The notes below the pieces were generated by a model. It was not told where the DNA came from. It did not search any database and saw only the letters and a list, made by a program, of their open reading frames with translations. Positions 4,002 to 25,180 of a DNA stretch of 29,552 bases are shown one piece after another. The DNA comes from Holosporales bacterium (GTDB lineage Bacteria; Pseudomonadota; Alphaproteobacteria; RUG11792). The translations under genes and the position numbers were made by a program. The stretch lies in NCBI GenBank assembly GCA_031279295.1, contig JAITIT010000035.1:1-29552 (forward strand). Direction: 5' to 3'. How positions within the stretch are numbered: position 1 is the first letter of the stretch; each line of letters begins with the position of its first letter.

Positions 4002-4228
4002 TTCTATCTATTTCAACTCAGCTAAGCCAGATCTCTTTACCAAACAATTATCTCAATCTTAGAACATGCCGTAACGATACAGATGCGAGCAACCGCATCG
4101 TAAAACAACAGATCTATAATGATAGCTCTGACCGGCATACTATCAGCTTTATCTTGTGACAACAAACTTTAGGACAGCCATAATTTTTGTTAGACGTTTC
4201 TGACTCCGGGGATATACATGCGGTATTC

Positions 4229-4244
4229 TTAACCAAAAATTAAC
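4229..4244 (+). promoter_or_regulatory. CtrA-type binding site TTAA-CCAAAAA-TTAAC
   Basis: Exact match to the TTAA-N7-TTAAC consensus. Intergenic, 60 nt upstream of the GTG at 4305. Confidence 0.65.
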
Positions 4245-4304
4245 AATATTAAATTATAATAACACTAGCACAGTCTCCAAGAGCGAGTTCAGGGGGATAC
4301 ATCA

Positions 4305-5207
4305 GTGAAGCGAATAGAACCATGCTTATTACTCACCATCATTATCTGCGTTCAGACCGTTAATGCGAGCGACCAGCATGCCGTACCAATCAGCTCAATT
4401 GATGATATATCGACCACAGCCGAGACACAGGATGAGGCGGAACAACCCGCTGTCCCACTCTTACACCCCAACACCAGCACGACACCACCACAAGTGCCGG
4501 ACCTATCAACACCCGTAAACCCACCCGGAGTTGAACCGAATCTGACCGACGGTAGCATGAACAGGCGTACGGCCGGACACACGCGTCAAGAAAAAACATG
4601 CGGAGCTGCTCTGCAGCTAGCACTCAACAAGCGCATACCAATCCTAGATCTCAGCGGAACTGCGGATCTCAATGTCAATGGAATCACAACCGTAAAGGAG
4701 TTTGTCGAGGCGAGACGCGCGTCAAATTCATACGGAACGGGATCCAATAATATCGGCGTCAACCTGGCCGCGACTGGGGCGACCAGCGACACTATTACCA
4801 GAATCCTGGGAGAGCTCACCGAATATAAGGTGGTGCTCAATCTCTCCTGGAACCCACTGGTTAATGACGACGCACTTAACGCGATCATGCAACATGCCAC
4901 CAACGTGGTAGCGCTGAACGTTGCGGGAACACAAGTAACAGACGCTGGAGCATCGATGCTCGCCAGAAACATCCCCGGGAATATGCCAAACCTGAGATCA
5001 GTAAATTTTAGCAGAACCAACGTCACACAGGCTGGAATTAGCGAACTTGGAGCAGCAGTAAACAATGCGCAAACTACTGTGCAGAATGTTACACAGCCCT
5101 CTGAGGATGGAACGACAGACATACCACCCATTGCTCTACCCTCTACTGCTCCAACCTCTATAGGTAGCAGTCACAATACCCGGAGACATCCAATTACAAA
5201 GAGTTAG
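4305..5207 (+). CDS. Secreted hypothetical protein with short leucine-rich-repeat region
   Basis: Signal-peptide-like N-terminus (MKRIEPCLLLTIIICVQTVNA-SD). LRR-like units VLNLSWNPLVNDDAL, VALNVAGTQVTDAGA and RSVNFSRTNVTQAGI. Pro/Thr-rich flanks. Confidence 0.7.
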   Translation: MKRIEPCLLLTIIICVQTVNASDQHAVPISSIDDISTTAETQDEAEQPAVPLLHPNTSTTPPQVPDLSTPVNPPGVEPNLTDGSMNRRTAGHTRQEKTCGAALQLALNKRIPILDLSGTADLNVNGITTVKEFVEARRASNSYGTGSNNIGVNLAATGATSDTITRILGELTEYKVVLNLSWNPLVNDDALNAIMQHATNVVALNVAGTQVTDAGASMLARNIPGNMPNLRSVNFSRTNVTQAGISELGAAVNNAQTTVQNVTQPSEDGTTDIPPIALPSTAPTSIGSSHNTRRHPITKS

Positions 5208-5351
5208 TACAGTGTTGCGGTAAGCACCTTAAACATCGTTGTTACATTACTTGGAAATCTCCATGTCTTTCAAGTCGTCAATTCCGGAATTAGGAAAACT
5301 TGCTTCCGAGTCTTGGCCCATGGTATACTCTCATAAGTCGAGGGGGAAGGT

Positions 5352-6320
5352 GTGCGTGGCCGTATGTCGTTGGGCGACAAGCAGAGTAAAAAATCTAAGC
5401 AAGAGCAGCATGATGGCATGATATCTTCTATGGGGGAAAGCGGGCTCAACGCGGGAGTGGACAGGAAGCTCCTTATCAACTGTGTGCTGAGTGTGGCTGT
5501 CGCGATGGTCGCAACATTCGCTACGATGAAGATCGGGATGAGTTATCATGATGATAAGATACAGGAACTTCTCGAACAATGCTCTGCCCTAGAAAGCAAG
5601 ATAAAGAGTACATCAGAGTCAGTTATAGCAATGTCCGTAGCACTCACAAACATCCAAACAGAGATGAAGGCAGACAAAGAAACCGCAGCTCGTGTGTATA
5701 GCAGTGTGTCATCGCTGCAAGGCGAGATTGAGTCAATTAAAAAGGAGTTACACATCGAGCAAACACACCATCAGGAAGATGCTGTGGTAGAAAAGCATGA
5801 GCATGTTCTGTCACCAAAAGAACGGGAGGTTGAGGAATCACTAGGGCGTATGGTCGATAGCGGTATCCCATTTGCGGACTACGTAGAATCCAAAAAGAAG
5901 GAAGTCGACCTTGCAGGTTGTAGTTCATACAAGAATTTGATGAGGTTCTCAAAGGAGCATGTGAAGTCCGTTACGGATTTGATGAAGGAGTGTACAGCGG
6001 TTGGGGAAGCCGTGTTTTCCATGAATATAAACGAGTCGTTCTGGGAAAAACACAAGAGAATCATCAAGGAGAAGATCGTCGGAGCTATCAAGTTTGGACA
6101 GGAGAGTGCTGATGATGATAAAACTCTCTTCAAAAACGCATGCCAAAAATTGGCGGATGGAGATATAGCTGGAGCACTGGCACTGTTCCAACAGATTAAA
6201 ACAGAGAACGAAGAGCTCAACTCTCTTATTGCAGAGACGAAAAAGAGGGCAGAGCTTAATGATGTCTTTGCAACATTCAAGGAAGAGCTTCATAAGAAGC
6301 ATGAGAGCAATGAGGAATAG
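5352..6320 (+). CDS. Mic60/mitofilin-like (COG4223-type) membrane-anchored coiled-coil protein
   Basis: One N-terminal TM segment, a long coiled coil, and a C-terminal region with VDSGIPFAD and KLADGDIAGALALF resembling the alphaproteobacterial mitofilin domain (pattern recognition). Start may be ATG 5364. Confidence 0.65.
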   Translation: MRGRMSLGDKQSKKSKQEQHDGMISSMGESGLNAGVDRKLLINCVLSVAVAMVATFATMKIGMSYHDDKIQELLEQCSALESKIKSTSESVIAMSVALTNIQTEMKADKETAARVYSSVSSLQGEIESIKKELHIEQTHHQEDAVVEKHEHVLSPKEREVEESLGRMVDSGIPFADYVESKKKEVDLAGCSSYKNLMRFSKEHVKSVTDLMKECTAVGEAVFSMNINESFWEKHKRIIKEKIVGAIKFGQESADDDKTLFKNACQKLADGDIAGALALFQQIKTENEELNSLIAETKKRAELNDVFATFKEELHKKHESNEE

Positions 6321-6322
6321 TA

Positions 6323-6350
6323 CACAGCTCGCACATAAAGTGGAGCTGTG
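6323..6350 (+). terminator. Stem-loop directly after the stop codon; possible terminator or stabiliser
   Basis: CACAGCTC-g-CAC-ataaa-GTG-GAGCTGTG begins 2 nt after the stop. There is no clear U tract, so it is not a classical intrinsic terminator. Confidence 0.4.
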
Positions 6351-6550
6351 GAGGGCTTGTGTAACTTGATGCGCTTAGGCCATCATGTAACTGACATATC
6401 GACCGTGGCATTTTTGCAACTTATCACAGAGTCACTGAAAAATCATCTCAATATACACTAATTGCAGTTCCTCCAAATACGCTAAAATAACAGATAGAGG
6501 GTCGTGCGGACACGTGTGACCGGAGGGTGTAATTTTTTGGGAGTTAAGAA

Positions 6551-6886
6551 ATGAAGAAAGTGTTTTTGTTGGCAACAGTGATAATTGCCGGGCAGTCGCT
6601 AATTAGCGTCGTACAGGCAGAGGAGCCACCGGTACCCACCGATGTGAATACGCCACCGGCAGACAATGCAGCGGCGAATAATGAGGATCCTGATGCGAGT
6701 GGGACCCCAGCTAATGATGCGAGTAGTGATAAAACTGAAAGTATAGGCGCATCCAAGAAGAGGAAGAAAAATAAGGGGACAAAGGGGACAAAGGACAATC
6801 CGGAGAGCCAAGCAATAGTGAGCGAGTTGAATGCCGCTAATTCGCCACCAGTAGCACCAGAGGCAGCAAGGACGGACGGAGATTAA
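6551..6886 (+). CDS. Small secreted low-complexity hypothetical protein
   Basis: Signal peptide MKKVFLLATVIIAGQSLISVVQA-EE, acidic/Pro-rich mature region, basic cluster KKRKKNK, SD-like GGGAG upstream. Confidence 0.75.
   Translation: MKKVFLLATVIIAGQSLISVVQAEEPPVPTDVNTPPADNAAANNEDPDASGTPANDASSDKTESIGASKKRKKNKGTKGTKDNPESQAIVSELNAANSPPVAPEAARTDGD
6773..6797 (+). repeat. Short in-frame 9-bp tandem repeat (AAGGGGACA x2 plus partial copy)
   Basis: aaggggaca aaggggaca aaggaca, encoding KGTKGTKD. Confidence 0.6.
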
Positions 6887-7044
6887 ATAGTAACATGCTG
6901 ATCGGGAGTCGCTGAGTTCATCTGGCAAACGACTCCCTGGGAGGACGATGTACAAAATGGATACGTGGGTGAGTAACCCGGATCTTGATTTTGTGGAAGC
7001 AATGAGTTAGCATGCTCTCCTCAGGAGAGCATGGTCGGTCCACA

Positions 7045-8256
7045 ATGAGAGACCTTGGGTTTTTTAGGTATATGCTCCATGCTGTTCCAGGAACGGTGTG
7101 GGCTGTCGGTATCTCATCTCTCTTAATCAATACTGCAACGTCTGCTTCTTTCATAGGAGTTGCGTTGTATCTGAAGATAACCTGTGGGGTTTCCATAGGA
7201 ATGATCGGTTGCCTAGAAGCCATCGTGGAAGCCATCGCGTATATAACCAGGATGTTCTCCGGCGCTATCAGTGATTATTTCAAGAGACGTAAGCCGTTGA
7301 TGATACTCGGGTTCGCCATGATTATCGTATCGAAACCGCTACTAGCCATGTCGAGGGTATACGCGACGGTTCTAGTTGCAAGGGGAATAGACAGGATCGG
7401 AAATGGCATGCAAGCCAGTCCGAGAGATGCGCTAATCAGCGATTCCGCCCCACACAACGTAAAAGGTGCATGCTTTGGATTACGACAGAGCCTGGCTGTG
7501 ATTGGATCAACACTAGGTGGCATCGGTGGTATCGTTGTTATGAGGATGAGCGACAACAGCTTTACGACTCTGTTCACCTTGTCGACAGTTCCGGCGCTCA
7601 TAGCGGTTGTCACGTTAATCATGTTCGTCAAAGAGGAAAAGAAAACACAGGAACGGGGAGAGCGTCGTAAGATTAGGTTGAGAGACCTCAAGCTCCTTGG
7701 GAAGCATTTTTGGATGCTGATGGTAGTCGTAACTCCATTCATGCTCAGCAGATTTAGTGAGGTTTTCATCTCGCTACACGCATGTGGAAACTTTGGATTA
7801 GACATAGCGTATGGGACATCTATCACAGTGATATACAACCTGATGTCAACTGCGGTTTCATATCCCATCGGGAAACTATCGGACAGAATCGGAAGGGTAC
7901 GGTTGCTTCTACTTGGGTTCATAATCTTGTTATTTGCTCACCTGTTAATTGGCTTTGCCATGAATCTATATATGGTGCTGTTCGGAACTATTCTGTGGGG
8001 GTGTCAGAGGGGGATAGCCGACGGGTTGATTGCTACGATGGTTTCTGACTATGTTCCAAAGGATTTGCGTGGTACTGGGTTTGGGGTGTACTACTTTGTA
8101 GTTTCCTTCACGACTGCGATATCGAGTGCAACAGCCGGAGCTGTATCTCAACTGTATGGAGAAGCGTATGCCTTCATCATGGGTGCCTGCTGCTGTGGAG
8201 TCGCAGGAGCAACACTATATGCATCTAGGAAATTCCTACAAATCACAGAGTCTTAG
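7045..8256 (+). CDS. Major facilitator superfamily transporter
   Basis: About 12 hydrophobic segments and motif A twice (GAISDYFKRRKP, GKLSDRIGRVR). ATG 7045 preferred; the ORF track starts at 7012. Confidence 0.92.
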   Translation: MRDLGFFRYMLHAVPGTVWAVGISSLLINTATSASFIGVALYLKITCGVSIGMIGCLEAIVEAIAYITRMFSGAISDYFKRRKPLMILGFAMIIVSKPLLAMSRVYATVLVARGIDRIGNGMQASPRDALISDSAPHNVKGACFGLRQSLAVIGSTLGGIGGIVVMRMSDNSFTTLFTLSTVPALIAVVTLIMFVKEEKKTQERGERRKIRLRDLKLLGKHFWMLMVVVTPFMLSRFSEVFISLHACGNFGLDIAYGTSITVIYNLMSTAVSYPIGKLSDRIGRVRLLLLGFIILLFAHLLIGFAMNLYMVLFGTILWGCQRGIADGLIATMVSDYVPKDLRGTGFGVYYFVVSFTTAISSATAGAVSQLYGEAYAFIMGACCCGVAGATLYASRKFLQITES

Positions 8257-9083
8257 CTATGGATTTCATCTCCTGTCTCTACATAGTTAGGATTGACCCA
8301 TAAAGCAATCTTCTTGTATGACATCCACTTCTTTCCTTTCTCATCGAAGTAAATCTCATATATCCTGGATTCCTTGCACTTCAGGTTGAATGGAGCAGCT
8401 TCCATATCTTTATTGTAAGAAGGGCCTGTAGTGTCGCTAGCTTTGTTGTTTTTCCCGTTCGGATTACAGTACTCGACTATTATCGCATACTTAAAATTCG
8501 GGAGGATGTTATCCAAAAAGTATTGTATCCTTTCGTTGTTCCAGCAGTCAAATACATCTTTAACTATCAACAAATCACCTTTGTATTTCATGAAGTCATC
8601 GGTGGAGTCAATGCTAACAAAATGTATGTTCTCCTTCTCGTACTTCTGCTTATTAATTTGTATCACGCTATCTACAACGTCCATTCCATAGTACTGAACA
8701 TTTTTCGGGACGACAACATGCTGCATCCACTCGTAGCTCCCGCAGCCAAAATCAAATATGGTTTTCAGATCTGTAGTGTCTATGAATTTCTGTACGTACT
8801 CTATGCACGGCATAGTGTACTTCTTGACCGAACCTAGTCCTGACAAATGCTTTGGCGTACCCCAGAATCTGTGAGTTCTGTATATCTCTGAGAATGTTTT
8901 CTTATCGCTTTGTAGATTGCGAATTTCACCGTCAAAGTATTGATATACTGATCTCACTTTGCGATCAACATACAGCTTTATCCCGATCATCGCCACGACA
9001 ATTGACGTTACTATAACGATCTTCTTTGATGTAGTATGCACAACATTACGTACGACCAATAATACAACGCGGCATTGTACCAT
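8253..9083 (-). CDS. Class I SAM-dependent methyltransferase with N-terminal membrane anchor
   Basis: Motif I (IFDFGCGS), YYGMDVV and LLIVKDV, with an upstream WG...SGLGS segment. Hydrophobic IVIVTSIVVAMIGI. Confidence 0.8.
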   Translation of the reverse strand: MVQCRVVLLVVRNVVHTTSKKIVIVTSIVVAMIGIKLYVDRKVRSVYQYFDGEIRNLQSDKKTFSEIYRTHRFWGTPKHLSGLGSVKKYTMPCIEYVQKFIDTTDLKTIFDFGCGSYEWMQHVVVPKNVQYYGMDVVDSVIQINKQKYEKENIHFVSIDSTDDFMKYKGDLLIVKDVFDCWNNERIQYFLDNILPNFKYAIIVEYCNPNGKNNKASDTTGPSYNKDMEAAPFNLKCKESRIYEIYFDEKGKKWMSYKKIALWVNPNYVETGDEIHS

Positions 9084-9088
9084 ATTAT

Positions 9089-9122
9089 TAGTTCTAAAAC
9101 AAGAGTGCGAATCTTAGAACTA
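9089..9122. repeat. 9-bp perfect inverted repeat TAGTTCTAA-N16-TTAGAACTA
   Basis: Read directly from the sequence. Lies 5 nt upstream of the methyltransferase ATG. Confidence 0.6.
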
Positions 9123-9219
9123 TTCGCCAGGAGGGAATATACCGCCTCAATAAACTTTCGAAATACCATCTGGGATTCTGGCTGACTGTAATGATTTTTA
9201 TCCTGGAAGCCGAAAAAAT

Positions 9220-9235
9220 TTAAGTTGAAGTTAAC
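9220..9235 (+). promoter_or_regulatory. CtrA-type binding site TTAA-GTTGAAG-TTAAC
   Basis: Exact consensus match. Intergenic, 63 nt upstream of the GTG at 9299. Confidence 0.65.
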
Positions 9236-9298
9236 GATTTTTTTACTGGTTATGTTAGAAGCTGTGAATGACTAGAAAGCTGAAGGTATCTGTACGTA

Positions 9299-10390
9299 GT
9301 GATAGTTTGGGGTATGTTCATTCGCAATTTGGATACCTTCATAAGGACTATGGTATTCAACAGCAGCGTGATGTTATGTCATATTAAGGATGGCAGGGTA
9401 CTGCATATCACTGAGTTGTATGACAGGGAGTCTGTATTTGCGTATCTCAGAGAGAATGCTACAACTCCAGTGGAAGTTGTCGTCCACAACGACGCGATGG
9501 TATGTCAGTTAGTTCCTGTCACAAATCTAAAGCGACGTGATATTAAAGCGCTAGCAACGAATCTTCTTGCAGAGAGAGATGAGGCTAACATCTGTTTTTA
9601 TGAAGAGCTAACGCGGGATAACCATGGCAGTATTATGATGTGTAGTATGATGATAAAGGCAGATGCACTGTCATTCCTAGGTGAGCTACTTGTTGCCAGA
9701 AATTTGATACTATCAGTCTCATGTTGGCCACTGTGGATTGCGAGACATTGTTGTAACCTGTACCAATCCGACGTACATAAATTTGCTGCCTTGTTGCTCA
9801 TCGGTGAGCATGACGAATCGTGGGAAATGGTGGTAGTGCGTAATGGAGATTGTGTCTGTTATAGAAACGGGAATATCGATAGTTTCAATCGAACAGCCGA
9901 GATAGAAGATACGCTACGGTACATCAACAATGTGCTGGGAATTAGTCCAAACGATGTGGTGATTTATACGGTCACCAAGGACTCGATCTTTGGAATCACG
10001 AGCGCATCATCCATGCACATGTCAGTTGTATCTAAAGGTACCGAAATCAACGTCGCACGATACTACAGGGTTACGGATACAGTAATTAGGCTCGGTTGCT
10101 ATTTCATGGCACTAATGATGTTCATATGTTCTGTAGTAAATATTTCCGAGGCACTGAATTATCAAAGGAAACTTACTGAGGCACATAAAATTGTAGCGTC
10201 TATCGATCAGAAGATTATTGATGAAGCCCGCTTGTGGGAATCGCTTGGGAATATCCAGTATGGTGATATCGTGGACTTCAAGAAGATTCTGTTGAAACAT
10301 ACGCCAGGCTCGAAGATTCTGCATAACGCCTCAGTGACTATCGGCACGAATGCTGATGACGTCAAGGTTAACATCATCTTAGAAACATGA
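9299..10390 (+). CDS. GspL / PilM-PilN-fusion-like assembly platform protein (putative)
   Basis: Cytoplasmic region with the PilM-like segment LLLIGEHDESWEMVVVRNGDCVCYR followed by EIEDTLRYI, then one TM (IRLGCYFMALMMFICSVV), a coiled coil and a short C-terminal domain. Start may be ATG 9314. Confidence 0.5.
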   Translation: MIVWGMFIRNLDTFIRTMVFNSSVMLCHIKDGRVLHITELYDRESVFAYLRENATTPVEVVVHNDAMVCQLVPVTNLKRRDIKALATNLLAERDEANICFYEELTRDNHGSIMMCSMMIKADALSFLGELLVARNLILSVSCWPLWIARHCCNLYQSDVHKFAALLLIGEHDESWEMVVVRNGDCVCYRNGNIDSFNRTAEIEDTLRYINNVLGISPNDVVIYTVTKDSIFGITSASSMHMSVVSKGTEINVARYYRVTDTVIRLGCYFMALMMFICSVVNISEALNYQRKLTEAHKIVASIDQKIIDEARLWESLGNIQYGDIVDFKKILLKHTPGSKILHNASVTIGTNADDVKVNIILET

Positions 10391-10914
10391 TTCGGTCTCT
10401 ACTACGATTCAGCATCCATACGATGATGCAGTATGCAAAAAGGCATCTACTGGCGATCTGCGTTACTACAATAGTTATGCTGGTGAACTGCCTGACCGCT
10501 ACGTATAGAAACAGTGAAGCTGTGGCATTGGAGGGCATCAAGGATACCTCACTCACAGCTGCCAATCTTGCTATGAACCAGCAGAAATTGCACTTCATAA
10601 CAGATCACTCCTTCTCAGGTAATGGTGAAAGGTTTGAGAGCTTTGTGCATAAGCTAGCCAACGATACCATCGCGAAAATTGGTGTTATTCAGATACTTGA
10701 GGAATCGAAGGTTGGCCTGTTGAACATGCAGAAACTAGACATCACATGCACGTTTTGGCACGAGACATTCATCTTCGAATTTCTGAAGAAGCTGCAGGAG
10801 TTCAAGCCTGGATTCGTTAGGATATCGTTCATCGACATCACGAGATTTGCTGCAGTCTCTGCGGAGAACCCAGCTCTCAAGTTACAGGTAACATGCGAAT
10901 TATATCGAAAATAG
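10387..10914 (+). CDS. GspM / PilO-like bitopic membrane protein (putative)
   Basis: N-terminal TM, helical linker and an alpha/beta C-terminus ending in a beta-strand pattern (LKLQVTCELYRK). ATGA overlap with the upstream gene. Confidence 0.5.
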   Translation: MIRSLLRFSIHTMMQYAKRHLLAICVTTIVMLVNCLTATYRNSEAVALEGIKDTSLTAANLAMNQQKLHFITDHSFSGNGERFESFVHKLANDTIAKIGVIQILEESKVGLLNMQKLDITCTFWHETFIFEFLKKLQEFKPGFVRISFIDITRFAAVSAENPALKLQVTCELYRK

Positions 10915-11234
10915 GCACATTACTAATCGTGGCGCTGAGCTGGTCGTTAGCACTAGCTGAGCCCCTACTGTTTATGAGTGACGAGGAATCGAAACTGGTG
11001 CTTCGCAGCGCTAAGAAACGCAAGGCTGAGTCACACTCAAATGGCACAGTGAAACTTTCAGGAATCTTGTACATCGATGAGGATAACTGGACCGTGTGGA
11101 TAGACGGTATGCCGTACTCCTCAATCGGGCAGAAAGATGAATTCTCTATAGATGAGGTGACAGAAGATAGCGTCTCACTTACGATGCAAGACGGCTCAAC
11201 GATAAATATGTCTGTCAATCATAACGATGCATAA
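10893..11234 (+). CDS. GspB / PilP / GspC-HR-like small exported protein (putative)
   Basis: Signal peptide ending ALA-EP. LSGILYIDEDNWTVWIDG...SIDEVTEDSVSL fits the beta-rich GspB/PilP-type domain pattern. Overlaps the upstream gene. Confidence 0.5.
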   Translation: MRIISKIGTLLIVALSWSLALAEPLLFMSDEESKLVLRSAKKRKAESHSNGTVKLSGILYIDEDNWTVWIDGMPYSSIGQKDEFSIDEVTEDSVSLTMQDGSTINMSVNHNDA

Positions 11235-11310
11235 AATGGTCTAGTAGGACGATGTACTATCCTCCAGCGGAAGTGCTAAAATCGTAAAGTATAATCGTGC
11301 CTTCGGCGGT

Positions 11311-12675
11311 ATGGCGATAGTGCAAATTAATCACGTCAAGAACATAGGGATTTTTGATGTGCTCAGGGTATCCACTCCGATGATCATATCGTCATTTTCG
11401 ACTTCTCTTATGCTGATATTGGATCAGCTCATCCTGGCACACTACTCAATAGACGCAATGACGGGAGCCTCCGCCGCATCAGTGTGGTGCATGATGATGC
11501 AATTCTCATCAATATCTGTAACGATGATAGCAGGGACGATAGTGGGAAACTACAATGGAGCTGGAAGATATGAGCTGTGTGGAGTTTCGGTATGGCAGAT
11601 GATATGGTTTTCAGTTGCCATATTTGCAGTCTCAATTCCTGTTGCAATATTTGGAGGGGAGTACTGTGTGCCCAAAACCCTCCATGAAGGTGGACTCATG
11701 TACTTCAAGTTAATCATGATGTGTTCTCCTCTTGTTGTAATATCCTATACGATATCGGCTTTCTTCGTTTCCACGTGGATGGGAAACATTGTGACGACCT
11801 CAATCCTTATTGCGAATGTCGTGAACTTTGTTGTGGACATATTACTGGTATTTGATCACCTAGGCATAGGATGCTGTACTGGTAGTACGGGAGCAGCCAT
11901 TGGTACCATAACAGCTTGGCTGACGAACATCACGATTCTCTCATTCCACTTTTTCAAGCGCGAGATACGCATCAAGTACGGTACACAAAATTTTCGTCTG
12001 CAACTTACAAAGCTAAGGGAGTACCTCAAGTTGGGCGCTACTGCTGGGATAGGGCACATCATAGAAATGAGCGCATGGGGGGTGCTTTATCATCTACTTG
12101 CGAACACGAATAAGGAGATGGCTGTGATCCAATCCGTGGCCGTGTCGGTAAGTATTTTTTCATCGTTTGTTGTGGCCGGGCTTGAGAAGAGTATCCTAGC
12201 CATGACAGCTAATCTGCTCGGTAAGAAACTACAGAGTAAGGTGAATCAAGTCTTGAGAGGAGGCGTGTGCATACACATTACATACGTCAGCATCATAGCT
12301 GTGATCTTTGTGTTCGCGCCGAATGTCGTTATAGATAGTTTCATCAGATTTGATGTCTCGGCCGACATGCTTCAGAATATCAAATTGATCCTGCGTTTTG
12401 TTTTGGTATATCTCCTATTCGATGGAATCAGCTGGGTTGTAGCCGGCGCGATAGAGGGAGGTGGAGATATCAACTTTACGATGCTGTCATTTGCTACTTG
12501 CATCTGGACCTTTGTTACTATTCCGTCAATCGTGTTATATAATCTAGGCATCCTAGATACTGCTAAAGCATGGACGTTTCTCGATATGGCGGTGGCTGTT
12601 ATTGCATTGATTTTGTACCGTAGGTATAGGTCAGGTAAATGGATACGCGTTAGCGGCATCTGTACCAAGGATTAG
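11311..12675 (+). CDS. MATE family efflux transporter
   Basis: About 12 TM segments; PMIISSFSTSLMLILDQLILA, GNYNGAG, GSTGAAIGT, GAIEGGGD. Confidence 0.9.
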   Translation: MAIVQINHVKNIGIFDVLRVSTPMIISSFSTSLMLILDQLILAHYSIDAMTGASAASVWCMMMQFSSISVTMIAGTIVGNYNGAGRYELCGVSVWQMIWFSVAIFAVSIPVAIFGGEYCVPKTLHEGGLMYFKLIMMCSPLVVISYTISAFFVSTWMGNIVTTSILIANVVNFVVDILLVFDHLGIGCCTGSTGAAIGTITAWLTNITILSFHFFKREIRIKYGTQNFRLQLTKLREYLKLGATAGIGHIIEMSAWGVLYHLLANTNKEMAVIQSVAVSVSIFSSFVVAGLEKSILAMTANLLGKKLQSKVNQVLRGGVCIHITYVSIIAVIFVFAPNVVIDSFIRFDVSADMLQNIKLILRFVLVYLLFDGISWVVAGAIEGGGDINFTMLSFATCIWTFVTIPSIVLYNLGILDTAKAWTFLDMAVAVIALILYRRYRSGKWIRVSGICTKD

Positions 12676-12702
12676 GTTGTCTTTATAAGTCCGAGGATGC
12701 TT

Positions 12703-13428
12703 TCAACATAGCTCCATGTTGTGGAATACCCTCTGCACGTCATCGTTATCATCAAGAGCATCTAAGAGTTTCTCCACAGTTGCGCGTACATTTTCATCGC
12801 ACTGCACACATGACGTCGGAACCCATATCAAACCAGACTCGACAGGATCACCAACCCTTGTGGTAAATGCATTTCGAACCTCAGCAAATTTTTTCGCGGA
12901 TGTTATCACTTCCACCCAGCCTTCATCAGTCTCGCGAATGTCGTCTGCCCCGGAATCTATGGCATACTCGTATGCTGTATCGAACCCACCAGTGATCGAC
13001 TTATACAGCAAACAACCAACTCTATTGAAGATACAGGAGACGCTGCCTGTTTCGCCAAGACGACCTCCAAACTTAGTAAATGCTGATCTTACTTCAGATG
13101 CAGTGCGGTTCCTGTTGTCTGTAAGCGCCTCCACTATTATGGCTACTCCATCAGGCCCACGTCCCTCATATTGTACGTCAAGAAAGTTTGAAGAGTTACT
13201 GTCGCTCGTAGCCTTAGCAATGGCCTTCTCGATATTGTCCTTTGGCATGTTGTTTTCGCGAGCGCCAGCAAGTGCGGTTCTAAGTCTGGGGTTTGCTGTT
13301 GGATCTCTGCCACCCAGTTTCGTTGCCACAGTAATCTCACGCGATAGCTTAGCGAACCTCCTTGCACGCTTCTCATCTTGCGCGCCCTTGCGATACATGA
13401 TGTTGTGAAATTGCGAATGTCCAGCCAT
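12703..13428 (-). CDS. yebC: YebC/PmpR family DNA-binding regulator
   Basis: MAGHSQFHNI, NPRLR, YEGRGPDGVAIIVEALTDNRNRT, DDNDDVQRVFHN. Confidence 0.95.
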   Translation of the reverse strand: MAGHSQFHNIMYRKGAQDEKRARRFAKLSREITVATKLGGRDPTANPRLRTALAGARENNMPKDNIEKAIAKATSDSNSSNFLDVQYEGRGPDGVAIIVEALTDNRNRTASEVRSAFTKFGGRLGETGSVSCIFNRVGCLLYKSITGGFDTAYEYAIDSGADDIRETDEGWVEVITSAKKFAEVRNAFTTRVGDPVESGLIWVPTSCVQCDENVRATVEKLLDALDDNDDVQRVFHNMELC

Positions 13429-13707
13429 ATAAAAATTTATAACTCAGGCACATCCCATCTTACCATTGTACCAAGCAATGACTCTGACAATCCAGCAAAA
13501 CCACCTGACAGCTATAGAGCCAGTTAGTCCCATGTACCTATATTTGGCACAGAACACCAAATGGTATTTAGAATCGTACGTGCTGTGATTACAATGCCTG
13601 TATATCATGGGGGGGTATTATACTGAAGTGTTCACCTAAGGCGAGGATGTTAATTTTTTCCACACTTAGCTACGTAACCTTTTAAGTGACAATGTCAATT
13701 TCCGGTA

Positions 13708-13956
13708 TCACACTACGTCTTTGTTAACTACGGCGAGGCAACTCCTGCCATTCGTGTACACGAATCCATCTGTAATTTTCGTAGACATACGCACACCAGC
13801 ATCCGTTACGTATATGATCTCCTCCGAAATTTTTGCCATATATGGTTGGTGCTGTGGCAATATGGTAACTGGACCATTGCCCGTAATAACATATATCTCC
13901 TTGGCGTAGTTATCAAAGATCCTCTCTTTGTCGCAGATCACCACTAAATTTAACAT
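13708..13956 (-). CDS. atpC: F0F1 ATP synthase epsilon-like protein, N-terminal beta-sandwich only
   Basis: LNLVVI..ERIFDNYAKEIYV..GNGPVTILPQHQP...DGFV fits the epsilon N-domain pattern (G.xGILPxHxP ... GGF). No C-terminal helices. Start is ATG 13956 or GTG 13971. Confidence 0.6.
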   Translation of the reverse strand: MLNLVVICDKERIFDNYAKEIYVITGNGPVTILPQHQPYMAKISEEIIYVTDAGVRMSTKITDGFVYTNGRSCLAVVNKDVV

Positions 13957-13970
13957 GCTTATCATCACCA

Positions 13971-14645
13971 CTAAAAATCTGGATTCGAGTACTCAGGTGA
14001 CGGAAGTACCTGCGGTAGGTTATCGCTTAAGATACTCCTGAATCCTGGCCTTGATTTTATCCTTGCGTACCAGCTCTTTGCAACTTCGTATTTATTCCAT
14101 ACAATGATCCCGAGATAGTCTAGCACTGAAACCAAGGATGCTGCATGTATATCAGCTATTGAAAAATCCCTTCCTGCTAGCCAGTTCCTTCTGTCGATGA
14201 GCCATGACATATAGTCCATGTGTGTAGATAACTTGGAGCATGCTAACCTTACGCTCGCTGGATCTGGGGTCTTACTTATATCATTCGCGAACCTCTTCAA
14301 AATTTTTTCCCTTATCAGTGGGAAGTAGACATCCCTATAAAATACGACGTCGAACCAATCTGCCAATCTACGGGCCTCGGCCCTTTGCACGTGTTCCTTT
14401 CCAATCATTTCAATCTCCGGATATGTTTCATTCAGATACTCCCTGATGGCAGAATTACCAAAAACTGATACACCACTGATGTCGACTAGGACAGGTAACG
14501 TTCCAAACAAATTTTGCTCCAACAACGAGTCAGACGGAGCCCACGGGCTCTCATATATCAGTACGCAATCCAGCCTCTTTTCAGCAAGCAGAAACCTAAC
14601 GGCCCTCGAGAACCCGCACAACGGATAATGGTATAACTTGCGCAT
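13971..14645 (-). CDS. fzlA: Glutathione S-transferase family protein, FtsZ-binding FzlA type
   Basis: MRKLYHYPLCGFSRAVR, RNWLAG, LDYLG, WYARIKSRP, and the FzlA-like C-terminus PSPEYSNPDF. Confidence 0.82.
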   Translation of the reverse strand: MRKLYHYPLCGFSRAVRFLLAEKRLDCVLIYESPWAPSDSLLEQNLFGTLPVLVDISGVSVFGNSAIREYLNETYPEIEMIGKEHVQRAEARRLADWFDVVFYRDVYFPLIREKILKRFANDISKTPDPASVRLACSKLSTHMDYMSWLIDRRNWLAGRDFSIADIHAASLVSVLDYLGIIVWNKYEVAKSWYARIKSRPGFRSILSDNLPQVLPSPEYSNPDF

Positions 14646-14658
14646 CGTATGCTGGAAC

Positions 14659-15219
14659 CTATATCTGCGTTATGTCGTGCTGTTTTACCTGAAGCAGCGC
14701 TTCAATCTTCTTGGAGAACTCATTCGTTAGATCCTGAACATCGTCAGACAGTTTTTTCATTTCATCCTCACCAATCTCATCGTTCTTCTCCATGGCTTTC
14801 ACATGATCCATGGCGTCCCTTCGGATATTCCTAATGGCAACCTTGGTATCTTCAGCGTACTTCCCAGCTAATTTGGAAAGCTCCTGCCTTCTCTCATCTG
14901 AGAGCGGCGGAATCGGTACCCTTATAACTTGCCCCTCCGTGATTGGATTCAGACTCGCTTCACAATCTCTTATTGCTCTCTCAACGTTTTTTACCAAATC
15001 CTTATCCCAGACGTTGACAATGAGGAGCCTAGAGTCTGGAGACGAAACAGTACCAATCTGGTTAATTGGCATTAACGAACCATAGGCGTTCACCTTAATC
15101 GGCTCGAGCAGAGCAGAAGTAGCACGCCCGGCTCTTATTCCGGACAATTCCCTTGTAAACGCATCAACTGATAATTCCATCTTATTTTTAAACTGCTGCA
15201 GCCTTGGATCTAAGCTCAT
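14659..15219 (-). CDS. frr: Ribosome recycling factor
   Basis: IRAGRAT, AYGSLMPINQIG, VPIPPLSDERR, KVAIRNIRRDA. Confidence 0.97.
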   Translation of the reverse strand: MSLDPRLQQFKNKMELSVDAFTRELSGIRAGRATSALLEPIKVNAYGSLMPINQIGTVSSPDSRLLIVNVWDKDLVKNVERAIRDCEASLNPITEGQVIRVPIPPLSDERRQELSKLAGKYAEDTKVAIRNIRRDAMDHVKAMEKNDEIGEDEMKKLSDDVQDLTNEFSKKIEALLQVKQHDITQI

Positions 15220-15428
15220 AATTGGTCCCTCTAAAGAAATTACCGTTCATCTTCACTCAGTGCGAGTTTACCAAAAAAGACATACACAACAAACTAAAAG
15301 ACGTACTTTAGTACAACACAGCCCACTCTAAAACATCCCTCCTGCTTTCAGAACTACCAACATAAGCTTCCTTTTTAGACTAGCCCTTACTATGGATTCC
15401 ATCTCGACCGAAACCGAGGGTACCAAAC

Positions 15429-15492
15429 AATGCTTACAAAGCAGATTAGTAGAATCAGTAACCATGATTGAAAGGAAAGCGCTGTAAGCATT
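15429..15492. repeat. 10-bp perfect inverted repeat AATGCTTACA-N44-TGTAAGCATT
   Basis: Read directly in the divergent frr/xseA intergenic region. Confidence 0.6.
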
Positions 15493-15506
15493 ATGATTAG
15501 AATAGG

Positions 15507-16913
15507 ATGCCTATTGTTAACTCGTCCATCTTCTTGCTATACTCACTACATCGTCATAAGTATCTTGGAATCGGCACCATGTGCTCAATGCCCGCTTTTG
15601 CAAAATCATTACACTTACTAGGCGATGAGGATATCTTCACTGTATCAGAGCTATCGTACGCTGTCAAGGGTATGGTCGAAAAAAATTTCACAGCGATCAA
15701 AGTGCGTGGAGAAGTCTCTAGCCTGAAGCTACATTCATCTGGCCATACGTACCTGTCAATCAAAGACGAGGAGGCAGTCATCGATGCGATTTGCTGGAGG
15801 GGCACGAAGATTACCTCCCAGATGGAGGAGGGGATGGAAGTCATAGTAAAAGGCCGTGTGACGACATACCCAACCAGATCAAAATACCAGCTTATCATAG
15901 AGGAGGCCAGCGTAGCAGGAGAAGGCGCGTTGCTAAAGATTATCAACGAAAGGAAGAAACTGTTTGCTGCCCGTGGATACTTCGATAAGCAACTACCTAT
16001 CCCGAAATTCCCTAGGATCATAGGCATCGTAACCTCTAAGACCGGAGCAGTTATAGAGGATATGAAACATCGGCTACGTGACAGGTATCCTTTTTGTCAC
16101 GCCGTAGTGTGGCCTGTTAACGTACAGGGAGTTGGAGCAGCTGAACAGGTTGCGAACGCTGTTAGAGGATTTAACTTGATGAGCGACAAAAGACCTGACA
16201 TCCTGATAGTTGCTCGTGGAGGCGGAAGCATAGAAGACTTGCTACCATTCAATGAGGAGGTTGTTGTTCGTGCAGTCTTTGATAGTAGGATCCCAGTCAT
16301 ATCGGCCATAGGCCACGAGACGGATACGACACTCATTGACTATGCCTCGGATCTTCGCGCCCCCACTCCCACAGCAGCAATTGAATTTGCAACGCCTGTA
16401 CTTACAGATGTTAGGGGTACATTCTCCAGAAATTGTGCAAGGCTAAATGCTACCACGGTTCGTATCATAGATGAATTACGTTCGTGCCTATCTACGCTAC
16501 ACAAACGCCTGGTGTCTGCGCGGTTTTCTATCACTGCTGTTGGCCAGAAGTTTGATGATAGGATTGATAGACTCACGGCTGCAATGGCCAACTTCATGGG
16601 CAAGGAAATCACCACACTTCGATCAAATAGACTGATCAGCCTCAACAACTACATCGCAATGAAGAAGCAGCACTACGCATCGGGAGCTAGTAGATTTACG
16701 GCGCTGCTGGGAATGTATCTCAGCAGACAACTGGAGAGGTCAGAGGTGCTTTTCAACAGGCTAGATCAGAGCTCGCTCAAGTCAGTCCTGAAAAAGGGAT
16801 TCTGCTTCGTGACTGATAGGCTAGGCAGGACGATAGAGACGAGGGAGATGTTTGAGAGCGAAAGAGCAAACGGTGTCGTCCTACACTTTGTTGATGGGTC
16901 TGTCAGCATCTGA
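15507..16913 (+). CDS. xseA: Exodeoxyribonuclease VII large subunit
   Basis: TVSELS, VRGEVS, SGHTY, ARGGGSIEDL, ISAIGHETD, APTPTAA. True start is probably ATG 15579 or 15588. Confidence 0.95.
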   Translation: MPIVNSSIFLLYSLHRHKYLGIGTMCSMPAFAKSLHLLGDEDIFTVSELSYAVKGMVEKNFTAIKVRGEVSSLKLHSSGHTYLSIKDEEAVIDAICWRGTKITSQMEEGMEVIVKGRVTTYPTRSKYQLIIEEASVAGEGALLKIINERKKLFAARGYFDKQLPIPKFPRIIGIVTSKTGAVIEDMKHRLRDRYPFCHAVVWPVNVQGVGAAEQVANAVRGFNLMSDKRPDILIVARGGGSIEDLLPFNEEVVVRAVFDSRIPVISAIGHETDTTLIDYASDLRAPTPTAAIEFATPVLTDVRGTFSRNCARLNATTVRIIDELRSCLSTLHKRLVSARFSITAVGQKFDDRIDRLTAAMANFMGKEITTLRSNRLISLNNYIAMKKQHYASGASRFTALLGMYLSRQLERSEVLFNRLDQSSLKSVLKKGFCFVTDRLGRTIETREMFESERANGVVLHFVDGSVSI

Positions 16914-16945
16914 TCATTGTACGGCTCTTAATGCTGCTTGCAGCA

Positions 16946-18190
16946 TTAAGAATCCACTACACTAATCTTCGTAAATTTCTTGCGACCAACCGATATGATA
17001 CAATCATCTGTGATGCTAGTCTCGTAATCCTCGATGACTGCTCCATCCACTCTTACTCCGCGTCCGTCTATCAGTCTCTTTGCTGCCGTGAGGCTCGCAG
17101 CCAGTTTCGTTTCATGAAGCACATTACAGATTTTTGTATCACGCTTAAATACGAACGTATCAATCATCTGCGTACAGTCACTACATCCATCTCTAAACAA
17201 GCTACTAGCCGTAGCTTTAATAGACTGCAGATCAGCGGTTGGATGCACGAACGATGTCACAGAATCTGCTAGCAGTATCTTCATATCATTGATAGCTGCA
17301 GTACCGATAAGTCCCTCATACTCGTTAATTTCATCAAGGCTCATATCAGAGAACAGCTTCAGAAATTTCGGGACATCTGCATCATCCACGTTTCTCCAGT
17401 ACTGCCAGAATTCAAATACGGATGTTAAGTTCTCGTCCAACCATACCGCTCCACTCTCTGTCTTCCCCATTTTCAATCCATGGGAATTTGTGAGAAGAGG
17501 AGTAGATACTCCGTACGCTAGCTTGCCAGTTCTCTTTCGTATAAGATCTACTCCGAAGATCATGTTTGCCCATTGATCTGCTCCCCCGAGCTGGACCTTG
17601 CAACCATAGTTTTCGAAGAGGTAGAGGAAGTCGTAGGCCTGTATCAGCATGTAGCTGAATTCCAAAAAACTCAGATGCTGCTGCCTTTCAAGCCTTGCGC
17701 TGATGCTATCGAGTGCGAGCATCTTATTCACAGAAAATGATGGTCCGTATTCTCGAAGGAAATCCATGTAGTTAAGCTTTGAGATCCAGTCGTCATTGTT
17801 TAGGAGGATCGCAGCGTTGCCAGTATCTCCGAATTTAAGGAGTGTATGCAACTTAGATACGACGGCTGATATGTTGCTCTTGATCACCTCAAGCTCTAGC
17901 ATCGCTCTCTGCTGATCCTTCCACGTAGGATCTCCGATCTTACCAGTGGCTCCCCCAATGACTATGATCGGTTTTAGCCCACTCTTCTGCAATTCATTAA
18001 CCAACTTGATCCACAGCAGATGTCCGACGTGAAGACTAGGGGCCGTAGGATCGCACCCTATGTAGAATACGATTTCATGTGCGCTACTGCAGACCAGATT
18101 ATCGAGTGATTCTGCATCGGTAATCTGGTACAGGAATCCACGATCGTTAAGGTTGTTTAGGGTATCTGAGCGAAATCTGCTTCGAGACAT
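16946..18190 (-). CDS. tyrS: Tyrosine--tRNA ligase
   Basis: YIGCDPTAPSLHVGH, GGATGKIGDP, QLGGADQW, KMGKT and a C-terminal S4-like domain. ATG 18190 preferred; the ORF track starts at 18229. Confidence 0.97.
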   Translation of the reverse strand: MSRSRFRSDTLNNLNDRGFLYQITDAESLDNLVCSSAHEIVFYIGCDPTAPSLHVGHLLWIKLVNELQKSGLKPIIVIGGATGKIGDPTWKDQQRAMLELEVIKSNISAVVSKLHTLLKFGDTGNAAILLNNDDWISKLNYMDFLREYGPSFSVNKMLALDSISARLERQQHLSFLEFSYMLIQAYDFLYLFENYGCKVQLGGADQWANMIFGVDLIRKRTGKLAYGVSTPLLTNSHGLKMGKTESGAVWLDENLTSVFEFWQYWRNVDDADVPKFLKLFSDMSLDEINEYEGLIGTAAINDMKILLADSVTSFVHPTADLQSIKATASSLFRDGCSDCTQMIDTFVFKRDTKICNVLHETKLAASLTAAKRLIDGRGVRVDGAVIEDYETSITDDCIISVGRKKFTKISVVDS

Positions 18191-18307
18191 ACCGTACTCA
18201 TGGAATGAACACGCTCCGCATTCTACCATGCGTGTGCATTACGTAGCAAACGATCTGGAGCTAGATATTTTATTATAACACCACCTACCCAAATTCAACA
18301 GCTAATC

Positions 18308-19252
18308 TTAGCGCCTCCCCAGAAACTCCTCGGTACGCTTTGCGGCGAGGGCTCCGTGACCAGCCGCATAGATCGCTTGTTTTAACGACCGACTGACAAC
18401 ATCACCAGCAGCGAAGATCCCCTCGCAGGACGTTGCCGTATCAGTAGCCAGTATGTATTTTTCATCGTCCAGGACGACTAGCTCCTTCACGATCTCTGAC
18501 GTTGGTGTGGTTCCAACGGCTATAAACACTCCATCTACCTTCAGTATTGTCTCATCAGATGTGAGCCTATTCTTAATGTACAGCGTATCGACAGTTGTTT
18601 TCCCGGCAATTACGGACGGCTCTGAGTTCCATATACAACGCACGTTGTCCTTGTTGAATAGTTTCTGCTGCATTACATTATCGGCCCTCAGTGTATCTCT
18701 CCTATGTATCAGCGTAACCTCGCTAGCGAAACTTGAGAGAAAGAGCGCCTCCATCACAGCGGAGTTACCACCGCCAATGACTGCTACCTTTTTACTCTTG
18801 TACATTGGACCATCACATGTTGCGCACCATGATACTCCCCTATTAGTAAACTCGGATTCACCAGGGATATTGAGGTGCCTGTGTCTGGCCCCAGTTGCAA
18901 TTATCATTGCCTGGGCACACACAGGATCAGCTCGTGGTATTGTTATTGTGAACTTACCATTGTTCCCCTGAGGTATCACTGACGTAACATCAATTGACTC
19001 TGCAGCTTCGTAAATAAACCGGGTACCAAGCTCTTTAGCATGTGCCATCATCTTCATCATAAGATCCGTTCCCTTGATGGAACTAAAGCCTGGGAAATTT
19101 TCTATGAGATCGGTGTTTATGAGTTGCCCTCCCGGATTCAAGCCAGTGATGACGAGAGGGTTAAGATCTGATCTAGCGAGGTAGATCGCCGCCGTAAGCC
19201 CCGCTGGCCCAGATCCAATTATCACTACATTTTCAATAGCCTGCTCCTGCAT
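18308..19252 (-). CDS. trxB: Thioredoxin reductase
   Basis: IIGSGPAGLTAA, CATCDG redox motif, IGGGNSA, IHRR, FAAGD. Confidence 0.97.
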   Translation of the reverse strand: MQEQAIENVVIIGSGPAGLTAAIYLARSDLNPLVITGLNPGGQLINTDLIENFPGFSSIKGTDLMMKMMAHAKELGTRFIYEAAESIDVTSVIPQGNNGKFTITIPRADPVCAQAMIIATGARHRHLNIPGESEFTNRGVSWCATCDGPMYKSKKVAVIGGGNSAVMEALFLSSFASEVTLIHRRDTLRADNVMQQKLFNKDNVRCIWNSEPSVIAGKTTVDTLYIKNRLTSDETILKVDGVFIAVGTTPTSEIVKELVVLDDEKYILATDTATSCEGIFAAGDVVSRSLKQAIYAAGHGALAAKRTEEFLGRR

Positions 19253-19285
19253 ACCGTCACACTCAATATCCTGCTGTTACGCCGC

Positions 19286-19540
19286 TCAGTTTACTCCAAC
19301 CTGCAAAAATTCTGAACTACTCTTGATGACGATGTTCCTTATATCAGGAGGATAGATGCCGGTGATTGCGGTCCAGTTTGATGGGATTCGATCAACCGGC
19401 CTGAACTTGTTCGAGTCAGCTTCCTTATCCATATCCTTTTCGCAATCACATCTGATATTCACATCCCCTGGCCAAGGCTGTTCTTCACAAAATACCTGGG
19501 CTTGTATCAGTAATGCTACGAGTAACAATGCTGCTTTCAT
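19286..19540 (-). CDS. Small secreted hypothetical protein (84 aa)
   Basis: Signal peptide MKAALLLVALLIQAQVFC-EE. Co-oriented with trxB and 33 nt from it. Confidence 0.6.
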   Translation of the reverse strand: MKAALLLVALLIQAQVFCEEQPWPGDVNIRCDCEKDMDKEADSNKFRPVDRIPSNWTAITGIYPPDIRNIVIKSSSEFLQVGVN

Positions 19541-19598
19541 CGTGTAGCTCCACGCATCCGTGTTGAAAAATTTCTCAGGTCATGCTACTCGGCAAAGG

Positions 19599-19614
19599 TT
19601 AAAATTCCGTTAAC
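19599..19614 (+). promoter_or_regulatory. CtrA-type binding site TTAA-AATTCCG-TTAAC
   Basis: Exact consensus match. 58 nt upstream of the minus-strand ATG at 19540. Confidence 0.62.
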
Positions 19615-24737: not shown

Positions 24738-25018
24738 ACAACACCTCGACCACGTAAATTACCAATTAGTGAAATGCTAGCAAAAAACAAAAAAAAACAC
24801 AACTCTTCCTGTACAATAGGAATTGACAAAAGGCGGCCAAAAGAATGAAAAGCCATGTCTAGAGGGTAACGGATTCTGAGAAGATTGTACACCACAGGGT
24901 GTAAGCTGTATATGATCTTTTAACCAAGGGGAGCTAGGTTATATGGGCACTGGCGCAGTAGCGGAAAGTAGTTGACGCAAGGCCTAACGAGTTAAAAGAC
25001 TATGGGCGTAAATTTTTT

Positions 25019-25056
25019 TTGACAGTACTGTTACGAGTATCTTAACCTGAGATTAG
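25019..25056 (+). promoter_or_regulatory. Putative promoter: TTGACA -35 followed by phased CtrA-like half-sites TTAC-N7-TTAA-N7-TTAG
   Basis: TTGACA at 25019-25024, TTAC 25031, TTAAC 25042, TTAG 25053. Upstream of the 25181 operon. Confidence 0.45.
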
Positions 25057-25180
25057 AGGCGGCCAAATGGGTTGCCCCTGATCTACGTAGAATACCAAAA
25101 CCTGGCCGCGGAGGCCATTCGTTCTCCCCGGCATTATTTATCAACAATCAACACCATAACTTTTGAAAGGAGTTAATCTC

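Follow-up and report, generated by a model that had tools for sequence, protein, structure and literature searches.

In Caulobacter crescentus, the 5' nucleotide of the full binding motif in promoters activated by the response regulator CtrA lies near −35, and at −39 in ctrA P2 (PMC4287350), and the majority of the activated promoters carry just one site, at −35 (PMC11264516, excerpt). CtrA of Ehrlichia chaffeensis is described as activating stress and transport genes globally, via TTAA-type sites (excerpts of PMC9791040, PMC9005958 and PMC13515596), dprA of Rhodobacter capsulatus is regulated by CtrA (Brimacombe 2014, as cited in PMC10883770, excerpt), and the type VI secretion system (T6SS) operon of Agrobacterium tumefaciens (Atu4344 region) has a predicted CtrA site and shows mild mis-regulation when pdhS2 is mutated (PMC7003649, Table 2). 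For the Holosporales, a review presents the T6SS as nearly universal and as the most credible host-interaction device, calls it experimentally unstudied and does not discuss its regulation (PMC11909080). In this study, we analyzed three CtrA-type boxes in a stretch of 29,552 nt (hereafter, the window) from an uncultured member of this order, located upstream of genes for a leucine-rich-repeat (LRR) protein, a GspL/PilMN-like protein and an 84-aa secreted protein (sites 1, 2 and 3, respectively). Members of the Holosporales live as obligate symbionts of protists and animals and are not genetically tractable, and no CtrA regulon in this order was described in the literature that we searched, where none of five papers naming both Holosporales and CtrA deals with a regulon. 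We consider it very likely that all three sites serve as operators of CtrA-dependent promoters, and, judged from its sequence, the CtrA-type regulon predicted for this uncultured bacterium is genuine.

CtrA-type boxes and their promoter grammar

We scanned both strands of the window for the full motif TTAA-N7-TTAAC and for its core TTAA-N7-TTAA. Full sites were found at 4229-4244, 9220-9235 and 19599-19614, all on the plus strand and all intergenic, exactly where an earlier note on this DNA had placed them, and no perfect core was present in the window beyond these three sites. The site at 19599-19614 is palindromic (GTTAA-N7-TTAAC), with its minus-strand match at 19598-19613. The window thus held 4 strand hits against 0.18 expected, and 4 or more hits were obtained in 0 of 100 shuffles, in line with the earlier estimate of well under one chance match. 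The same note had put the sites 60, 63 and 58 nt from the gene starts; measured from the end of TTAAC, we recovered these distances for the called starts of the open reading frames (ORFs) at 4305-5207 (+), 9299-10390 (+) and 19286-19540 (−). Across all box-type promoters of the genome, the distance ranges from about 39 to 82 nt; the similar start-codon spacing is therefore no constraint of its own and comes from a fixed box-to-(−10) geometry combined with short 5' untranslated regions. No RNA families were found in the window with Rfam.

The genome holding the window (G000) is a metagenome-assembled genome (MAG) of 734 kb in 76 contigs, 84.7% complete and with 47% GC, in which the window is contig C71; its sequence is present in one public run, a termite gut metagenome, and the runs listed were all of DNA. 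Genes were mapped with a simple longest-ORF caller (684 genes, 86% coding), so that starts are approximate, and about 107 kb, or about 14% of the genome, was intergenic (45% GC). Genome-wide, the motif gave 26 strand hits versus 5 for a reversed control pattern, and 16 of the 19 distinct full sites were intergenic on this map. Intergenic TTAA-Nk-TTAA occurred 18 times at k = 7 and 0-4 times at each other k from 0 to 15, and the core count in a Markov-1 simulation per segment averaged 2.5 and never exceeded 10 in 300 runs, as opposed to the 18 observed. The intergenic enrichment of the motif was about 9-fold and confined to the N7 spacer.

We aligned all 23 core sites in both orientations (46 oriented sites). 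The hexamer TAnnnT lay exactly 11 nt past the promoter-proximal TTAA (offset 15) in 11 of the 46 against a background of 0.021 (binomial P = 2.6e-9), and at 12 nt (offset 16) in 3 more, other offsets being unremarkable. The half-sites were mostly both TTAAC when read in the transcribed orientation. With the hexamer read as the −10, the box would extend from about −38 to −24 and leave no room for a canonical −35 hexamer, so that the box is predicted to lie over the −35 region, with transcription start sites (TSSs) placed by the −10 hexamer. The motif frequency and positional bias by which the earlier note proposed to judge its boxes thus turned out in their favor, with a strong bias in position as well as in orientation. 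The combination of box and −10 was also enriched over the reversed control in most of the related family genomes (G001, G003 and so on, which are kin and so not independent samples), such as G004 (95 versus 14), G013 (88 versus 8) and G015 (22 versus 1), and was not enriched in four AT-rich members. In some relatives, the box-N11-(−10) grammar covers roughly 90 promoters per 1-Mb genome.

Predicted promoters and targets in the window

Coordinates of the boxes, hexamers and genes are given in Table 1. At sites 1 and 3, the −10 hexamer lies on the side of the LRR gene and of the 84-aa gene, respectively, and no −10 was found at the class offset in the opposite orientation, toward pyk at site 1 and toward a nuoM-like gene 195 nt off at site 3. 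Since the hexamers point away from pyk and nuoM, which the earlier note had kept as possible targets, the predicted targets are the LRR gene and the 84-aa gene. Homologues of the LRR protein with 27-40% identity were present in 13 of 20 family genomes, and 7 of the 9 loci whose upstream DNA could be inspected carried a perfect core with TAnnnT at offset 15, located 46-67 nt before the first start codon; these perfect boxes represent 7 other genera, and an eighth locus had a one-mismatch box. When these upstream regions were anchored on the box, TTAAC...TTAA(c) and the −10 were the only conserved blocks. In the congeners G001 and G003, the sole DNA similar to window positions 4100-5250 was a promoter block of 35-45 nt with 91-94% identity; the coding sequence behind it was not conserved, and the block there precedes signal-peptide proteins. 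The 84-aa protein had no family match. Its homologue in G003 is clear and is preceded by TTAACGAAATTTTAAC with TAACAT at offset 15; in G004, where the homologue is weak, a box and a −10 are likewise found upstream.

At site 2, only genus g1 (G000 and G003) has the distal TTAA of the perfect box, suggesting that this box is partly a recent, genus-specific addition. What all 10 orthologous upstream regions with enough sequence share is TTAAC-N6-TTTA(C), followed by GAnnCT 11-12 nt on. This register is a one-mismatch box displaced by +11 bp, and the TTAAC that it has in common with the perfect box is the best-conserved part of the site (TTAAT in two genera), so that site 2 consists of three helically phased half-sites with 11-bp phasing. 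The functional pair is probably 9231-9245; since one-mismatch boxes as a class show no enrichment in G000, it is phylogenetic footprinting that speaks for the shifted register. Conservation upstream of orthologues, a further check that the earlier note had named, was accordingly observed at all three sites, at site 2 in the shifted register. Note that the entry for the first protein of the operon in a protein atlas begins at residue 6 (ATG at 9314), 15 nt past the GTG used in the earlier note; the true start may be this ATG, in which case the box distance would be 78 nt.

The first gene of the site 2 operon, conserved in 16 of 18 family genomes, encodes a 363-aa protein without any Pfam or NCBIfam match, including T2SSL, GspL_C, PilM_2 and PilN, even at E ≤ 5, and the protein atlas offered feature-level leads only. 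Its AlphaFold2 (AF2) model (predicted local distance difference test score, pLDDT, 82) combines an N-terminal actin-like domain with a long helix (residues 256-301) and, at the C-terminus, a small beta unit, and the sequence contains a hydrophobic stretch, consistent with a single transmembrane (TM) helix and a small periplasmic domain. In a Foldseek search, PilM ranked first (5eou, E = 4.6e-9), and the cytoplasmic domains of GspL/EpsL (4pht, 1yf5 and 5tkw) gave template-modeling scores of 0.46-0.50. Because the match to sequence models fails, we call the protein GspL/PilMN-like and not a family member. Partner genes in G000 are a single T2SS/T4P ATPase (T2SSE, C11), a single secretin (C20) and a single T2SSF/PilC/GspF gene (C47), none of them linked to the operon. 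The earlier view that the three targets are secretion-associated stands reasonably well, with signal-peptide-like N-termini in the LRR and 84-aa proteins and a PilM/GspL fold in the first protein of the operon.

Table 1. Predicted promoter elements and target genes; positions refer to the window unless another contig of G000 is named
Feature	Position	Strand	Remarks
CtrA box 1	4229-4243	+	TTAACCAAAAATTAA, then C at 4244; predicted about −38 to −24 of LRR promoter
−10 hexamer TATAAT	4255-4260	+	11 nt past proximal TTAA (offset 15); predicted TSS about 4266-4268
300-aa secreted LRR protein, predicted box 1 target	4305-5207	+	Pfam LRR_6 E = 1.8e-6; signal-peptide-like N-terminus
Perfect box 2	9220-9234	+	TTAAGTTGAAGTTAA, then C
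Conserved register TTAAC-N6-TTTA(C)	9231-9245	+	
Conserved −10-like hexamer GAAGCT	9258-9263	+	Offset 16 from proximal TTTA; predicted TSS about 9269-9271
Three-gene operon, predicted site 2 target	9299-11234	+	
GspL / PilM-PilN-fusion-like protein, 363 aa	9299-10390	+	AF2 model and Foldseek
TM protein, second operon gene	10387-10914	+	Topology only
Signal-peptide protein, third operon gene	10893-11234	+	Topology only
CtrA box 3, palindromic	19599-19613	−	Minus-strand reading TTAACGGAATTTTAA, then C
−10 hexamer TAGCAT	19582-19587	−	11 nt past proximal TTAA; predicted TSS about 19574-19576
84-aa secreted protein gene, predicted box 3 target	19286-19540	−	Signal-peptide-like N-terminus
Box-type promoter before tssB-tssC (T6SS sheath)	C75		
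Box-type promoter before gene immediately downstream of tssA	C21		
Box-type promoter before gene divergent from tssF	C12		
Box-type promoter before dprA	C3		
Box-type promoter before MarR regulator	C9		
Box-type promoter before MscS-cNMP channel	C7		
Box-type promoter before SulP	C38		
Box-type promoter before solute-binding protein	C61		

The predicted regulon and the probable CckA-ChpT-CtrA relay

Box-type promoters elsewhere in G000 precede the genes listed at the end of Table 1, and the other box-driven genes include several domain-less proteins, many with signal or lipoprotein signals. The T6SS core of the genome comprises TssA, TssB, TssC and TssF (ImpA_N 2e-21, VipA 4e-52, VipB 6e-131 and TssF 1e-119, respectively), and TssB was present in 22 of 24 relatives. 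Of 23 family genomes, 20 had a perfect core upstream of tssB and 2 more had a one-mismatch box there, with the spacer conserved and the −10 at offset 16. Likewise, 20 of 23 genomes had a perfect core with TAnnnT at offset 15 upstream of dprA, whose start is clearly over-called by the longest-ORF caller. Since dprA is a known CtrA-regulated gene in R. capsulatus, its place in the predicted regulon lends independent support to the motif being that of CtrA. A gene for a trypsin-like/PDZ protease lies directly behind tssC in the box-driven tssBC operon (C75:4744-5973, L018). In addition, in the region C29:5144-7902, a palindromic box at C29:5844-5858, with TAGACT at offset 15, precedes a 209-aa protein without Pfam match; 331 nt away, in divergent orientation, is a pair of genes for an HATPase_c protein and a helix-turn-helix (HTH; XRE)-receiver protein, which may be a further atypical two-component system.

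With regard to the regulator, G000 encodes a 239-aa OmpR-family response regulator as CtrA candidate. Its best NCBIfam model was NF045991 with 304 bits, the next family reaching 162, and its nearest homologues were response regulators of 'Holosporales bacterium' (NCBI) and proteins annotated 'cell cycle response regulator CtrA' (JGI), with about 55% identity to a Rhodobacterales protein. At E ≤ 1e-40, CtrA was found in 17 of 20 relatives. CckA is represented by a hybrid kinase with 550 bits on the Brucella CckA model NF046020. The genome also has NtrY/NtrX and one PhoB-like regulator. For ChpT, Pfam PF10090 gave nothing in G000 and one weak match (G007) in 21 family genomes, through which we reached a 192-aa candidate in G000 (C37:12437-13015). 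This protein is conserved in 22 of 24 family genomes with an invariant Cys-His in the first helix, and its AlphaFold model (pLDDT 88) has the dimerization and phosphotransfer (DHp) plus catalytic (CA)-like fold of histidine kinases, the best template-modeling scores being those of Caulobacter ChpT (4fmt and 4fpp, 0.58-0.64), compared with about 0.4-0.5 for true kinases; searches of PDB sequences with the candidate profiles A1 and A2 returned nothing. Thus, of the three relay genes that the earlier note wished to see in the genome, ctrA and cckA are present and chpT has a fold-level candidate, and the CckA-ChpT-CtrA relay is probably complete, as far as profile matches and structural models can tell.

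Some further boxes and matches were located near relay genes. A perfect box was located at C3:8134-8148, 13 nt away from where a 563-aa gene is called to start; this gene immediately precedes cckA and has the same orientation, the box has AGATGT at offset 15, and a CtrA input into cckA expression is possible. A box before the ChpT candidate (C37:13061) was not conserved in relatives and had no −10 at the class offset. A marginal, N-terminal GcrA-like match (E = 0.005) was found in a 174-aa ORF (C40:301-825, L130), with a perfect core inside the coding region (C40:651-665).

Repeated and imperfect boxes were also encountered. A repeat of about 33 nt is present at least 7 times in G000 (C7:28, C13:87, C24:11227, C28:7037, C32:4209, C41:4413 and C43:3703), with some copies less than 100 nt from contig ends; it is made up of TTCATACTTCCTTAACC, TTTCTCCCC and TACCATA in succession. 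It resembles a one-mismatch box with a −10, may be a mobile-element end or a multi-copy promoter, and may account for breaks in the assembly. In relatives, a direct repeat TTAAC-N6-TTAAC was very abundant in G002 (82 versus 0) and G014 (86 versus 5), and several identical copies lie about 100 nt from contig ends in G014, which suggests that a box-carrying repeated element has spread there. In the window itself, TTGACA followed by a phased TTAC-N7-TTAA-N7-TTAG was seen at 25018-25056, upstream of a 503-aa gene at 25163; this triple half-site (25031-25056) was rejected as a regulon promoter, having no −10 at the class offset in either orientation. A position weight matrix built from 14 promoter-class sites returned essentially its training set plus C14:9520 in a genome scan, and was left unused as over-fitted.

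Competing explanations and comparison with known CtrA systems

According to the mechanism that we propose, a dimer of phosphorylated CtrA would occupy two TTAA(C) half-sites separated by one turn of the helix, and the box, at about −38 to −24, would take the place of the −35 hexamer 11 (sometimes 12) nt before TAnnnT. From this position, CtrA would recruit RNA polymerase and activate transcription of the LRR gene (site 1), the GspL/PilMN-like assembly-platform operon (site 2) and the 84-aa gene (site 3), and would coordinate a secretion, host-interaction and DNA-uptake programme. We infer CtrA as the binding protein from the consensus, the promoter geometry, the regulon content and the presence of its gene, activation is the presumed effect, and the TSS positions are predicted ones. 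The earlier proposal of CtrA boxes is hence supported by the regulator genes, the enrichment and the conservation, with CtrA binding itself as the deduced step.

Several observations weigh against this interpretation. The CtrA candidate scores 304 bits, below the curated cut-off of 350 bits of a model built on Rhodobacterales; no box with up to one mismatch lies within 400 nt upstream of ctrA; the assignment of the ChpT candidate is one of fold; and no CtrA was found at E ≤ 1e-40 in G008, G012 and G034, which nevertheless carry boxes, so that a comparison of the kind 'no ctrA, no motif' does not separate the relatives, although MAGs are incomplete and the missing matches may be assembly gaps. 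Some of these points, together with the further DNA-binding response regulators encoded in G000, would also fit a functional motif that is bound by another regulator, such as the OmpR/PhoB-type protein of C68, the HTH-receiver protein of C29 or the MarR protein. We regard this as improbable, since the motif has the textbook CtrA consensus, the correct half-site spacing and the same predicted position relative to the promoter as in Caulobacter, and the predicted regulon includes dprA. Moreover, the second OmpR-type protein scores best as PhoB/OmpR, and the known binding sites of PhoB and OmpR differ from the CtrA box. Still harder to credit is the explanation that the three matches arose by chance in intergenic DNA of high AT content or represent a repeat. 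The intergenic DNA is somewhat AT-richer than the genome and the window is short, at 29.5 kb, but the expectation per window is far below the number observed, the enrichment is spacer-specific, and distance and orientation to the −10 are fixed; in addition, the flanks are unique and the boxes have been kept before orthologues that diverged to about 30% identity.

Site 2 calls for separate consideration. Here, the perfect box could be incidental, with the downstream register alone being of importance, or the promoter could be CtrA-independent with the T-run acting as an UP-like or curvature element. The restriction of the distal TTAA to one genus would agree with this, as would the lack of TAnnnT at offset 15 or 16 of the perfect box in either orientation. 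One-mismatch boxes, to which the conserved register belongs, are likewise unenriched as a class: in G000, those with a −10 showed no clear N7 enrichment once an 8-copy repeat was removed. Both of the latter points also count against CtrA-dependent activation at this site. On the other hand, nearly all of the 10 orthologous upstream regions retain TTAAC, and the geometry of the regulon (offset 15 or 16) is preserved among this half-site, the T-run that ends in TTTA(C) and GAnnCT. Three half-sites with exact 11-bp phasing are also reminiscent of multi-site CtrA promoters, Caulobacter pilA being one (PMC11264516, excerpt). We consider an incidental box 2 or a CtrA-independent promoter less likely than not, and favor CtrA-dependent promoters at all three sites.

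A conserved CtrA-type promoter before tssBC, dprA, the LRR family and a secretion/pilus platform amounts to a concrete, testable regulatory model. It is tempting, but somewhat doubtful, to go further and regard CtrA as the master switch of the host-interaction programme in this family, directly activating the T6SS sheath, the platform, effectors and DNA uptake; if so, secretion would be tied to a cell-cycle or developmental (infectious/transmissive) stage. In practical terms, the box-N11-(−10) signature could be used for effector prediction, given that many of the candidates are exported and without known domains. The elements that we find noteworthy are the conserved wiring of CtrA-type promoters to the T6SS, effectors and dprA, and the very rigid promoter grammar, which together would extend the known rewiring of CtrA regulons to another reduced-genome lineage.

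When compared with the CtrA promoters of C. crescentus (ctrA P2, fliQ and ccrM), the half-sites have the same sequence and the same 11-bp phasing; here the box is predicted to take the place of the −35 region, with its 5' nucleotide at about −38 and a sigma-70-like −10 downstream, and pilus-type machinery is among the predicted targets. In contrast, the −10 spacing is unusually rigid here (11-12 nt), and the spacer is A/T-rich, with a TTAAC direct-repeat flavor. Sites for flagellar genes, ccrM or ctrA autoregulation were not seen in this genome, and the predicted targets are the T6SS, LRR and small secreted proteins and a GspL-like platform instead of Tad pili and flagella. E. chaffeensis, an obligate intracellular member of the Rickettsiales, is similar in being a host-associated alphaproteobacterium with a reduced genome and few two-component systems, whereas the present bacterium belongs to the Holosporales, as judged from homologue annotation, and its targets, secretion machinery and effectors, are predicted ones. 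With R. capsulatus, in which CtrA controls dprA and competence for receipt of the gene transfer agent, our system shares dprA behind a CtrA box, in G000 as well as in the relatives. Finally, T6SS genes with a predicted CtrA site are common to A. tumefaciens and the present genome; for Agrobacterium, a free-living bacterium with a large genome and other known T6SS regulators, this amounts to a hint, whereas here the tssBC box has been retained in more than 20 genera belonging to a family with reduced genomes.

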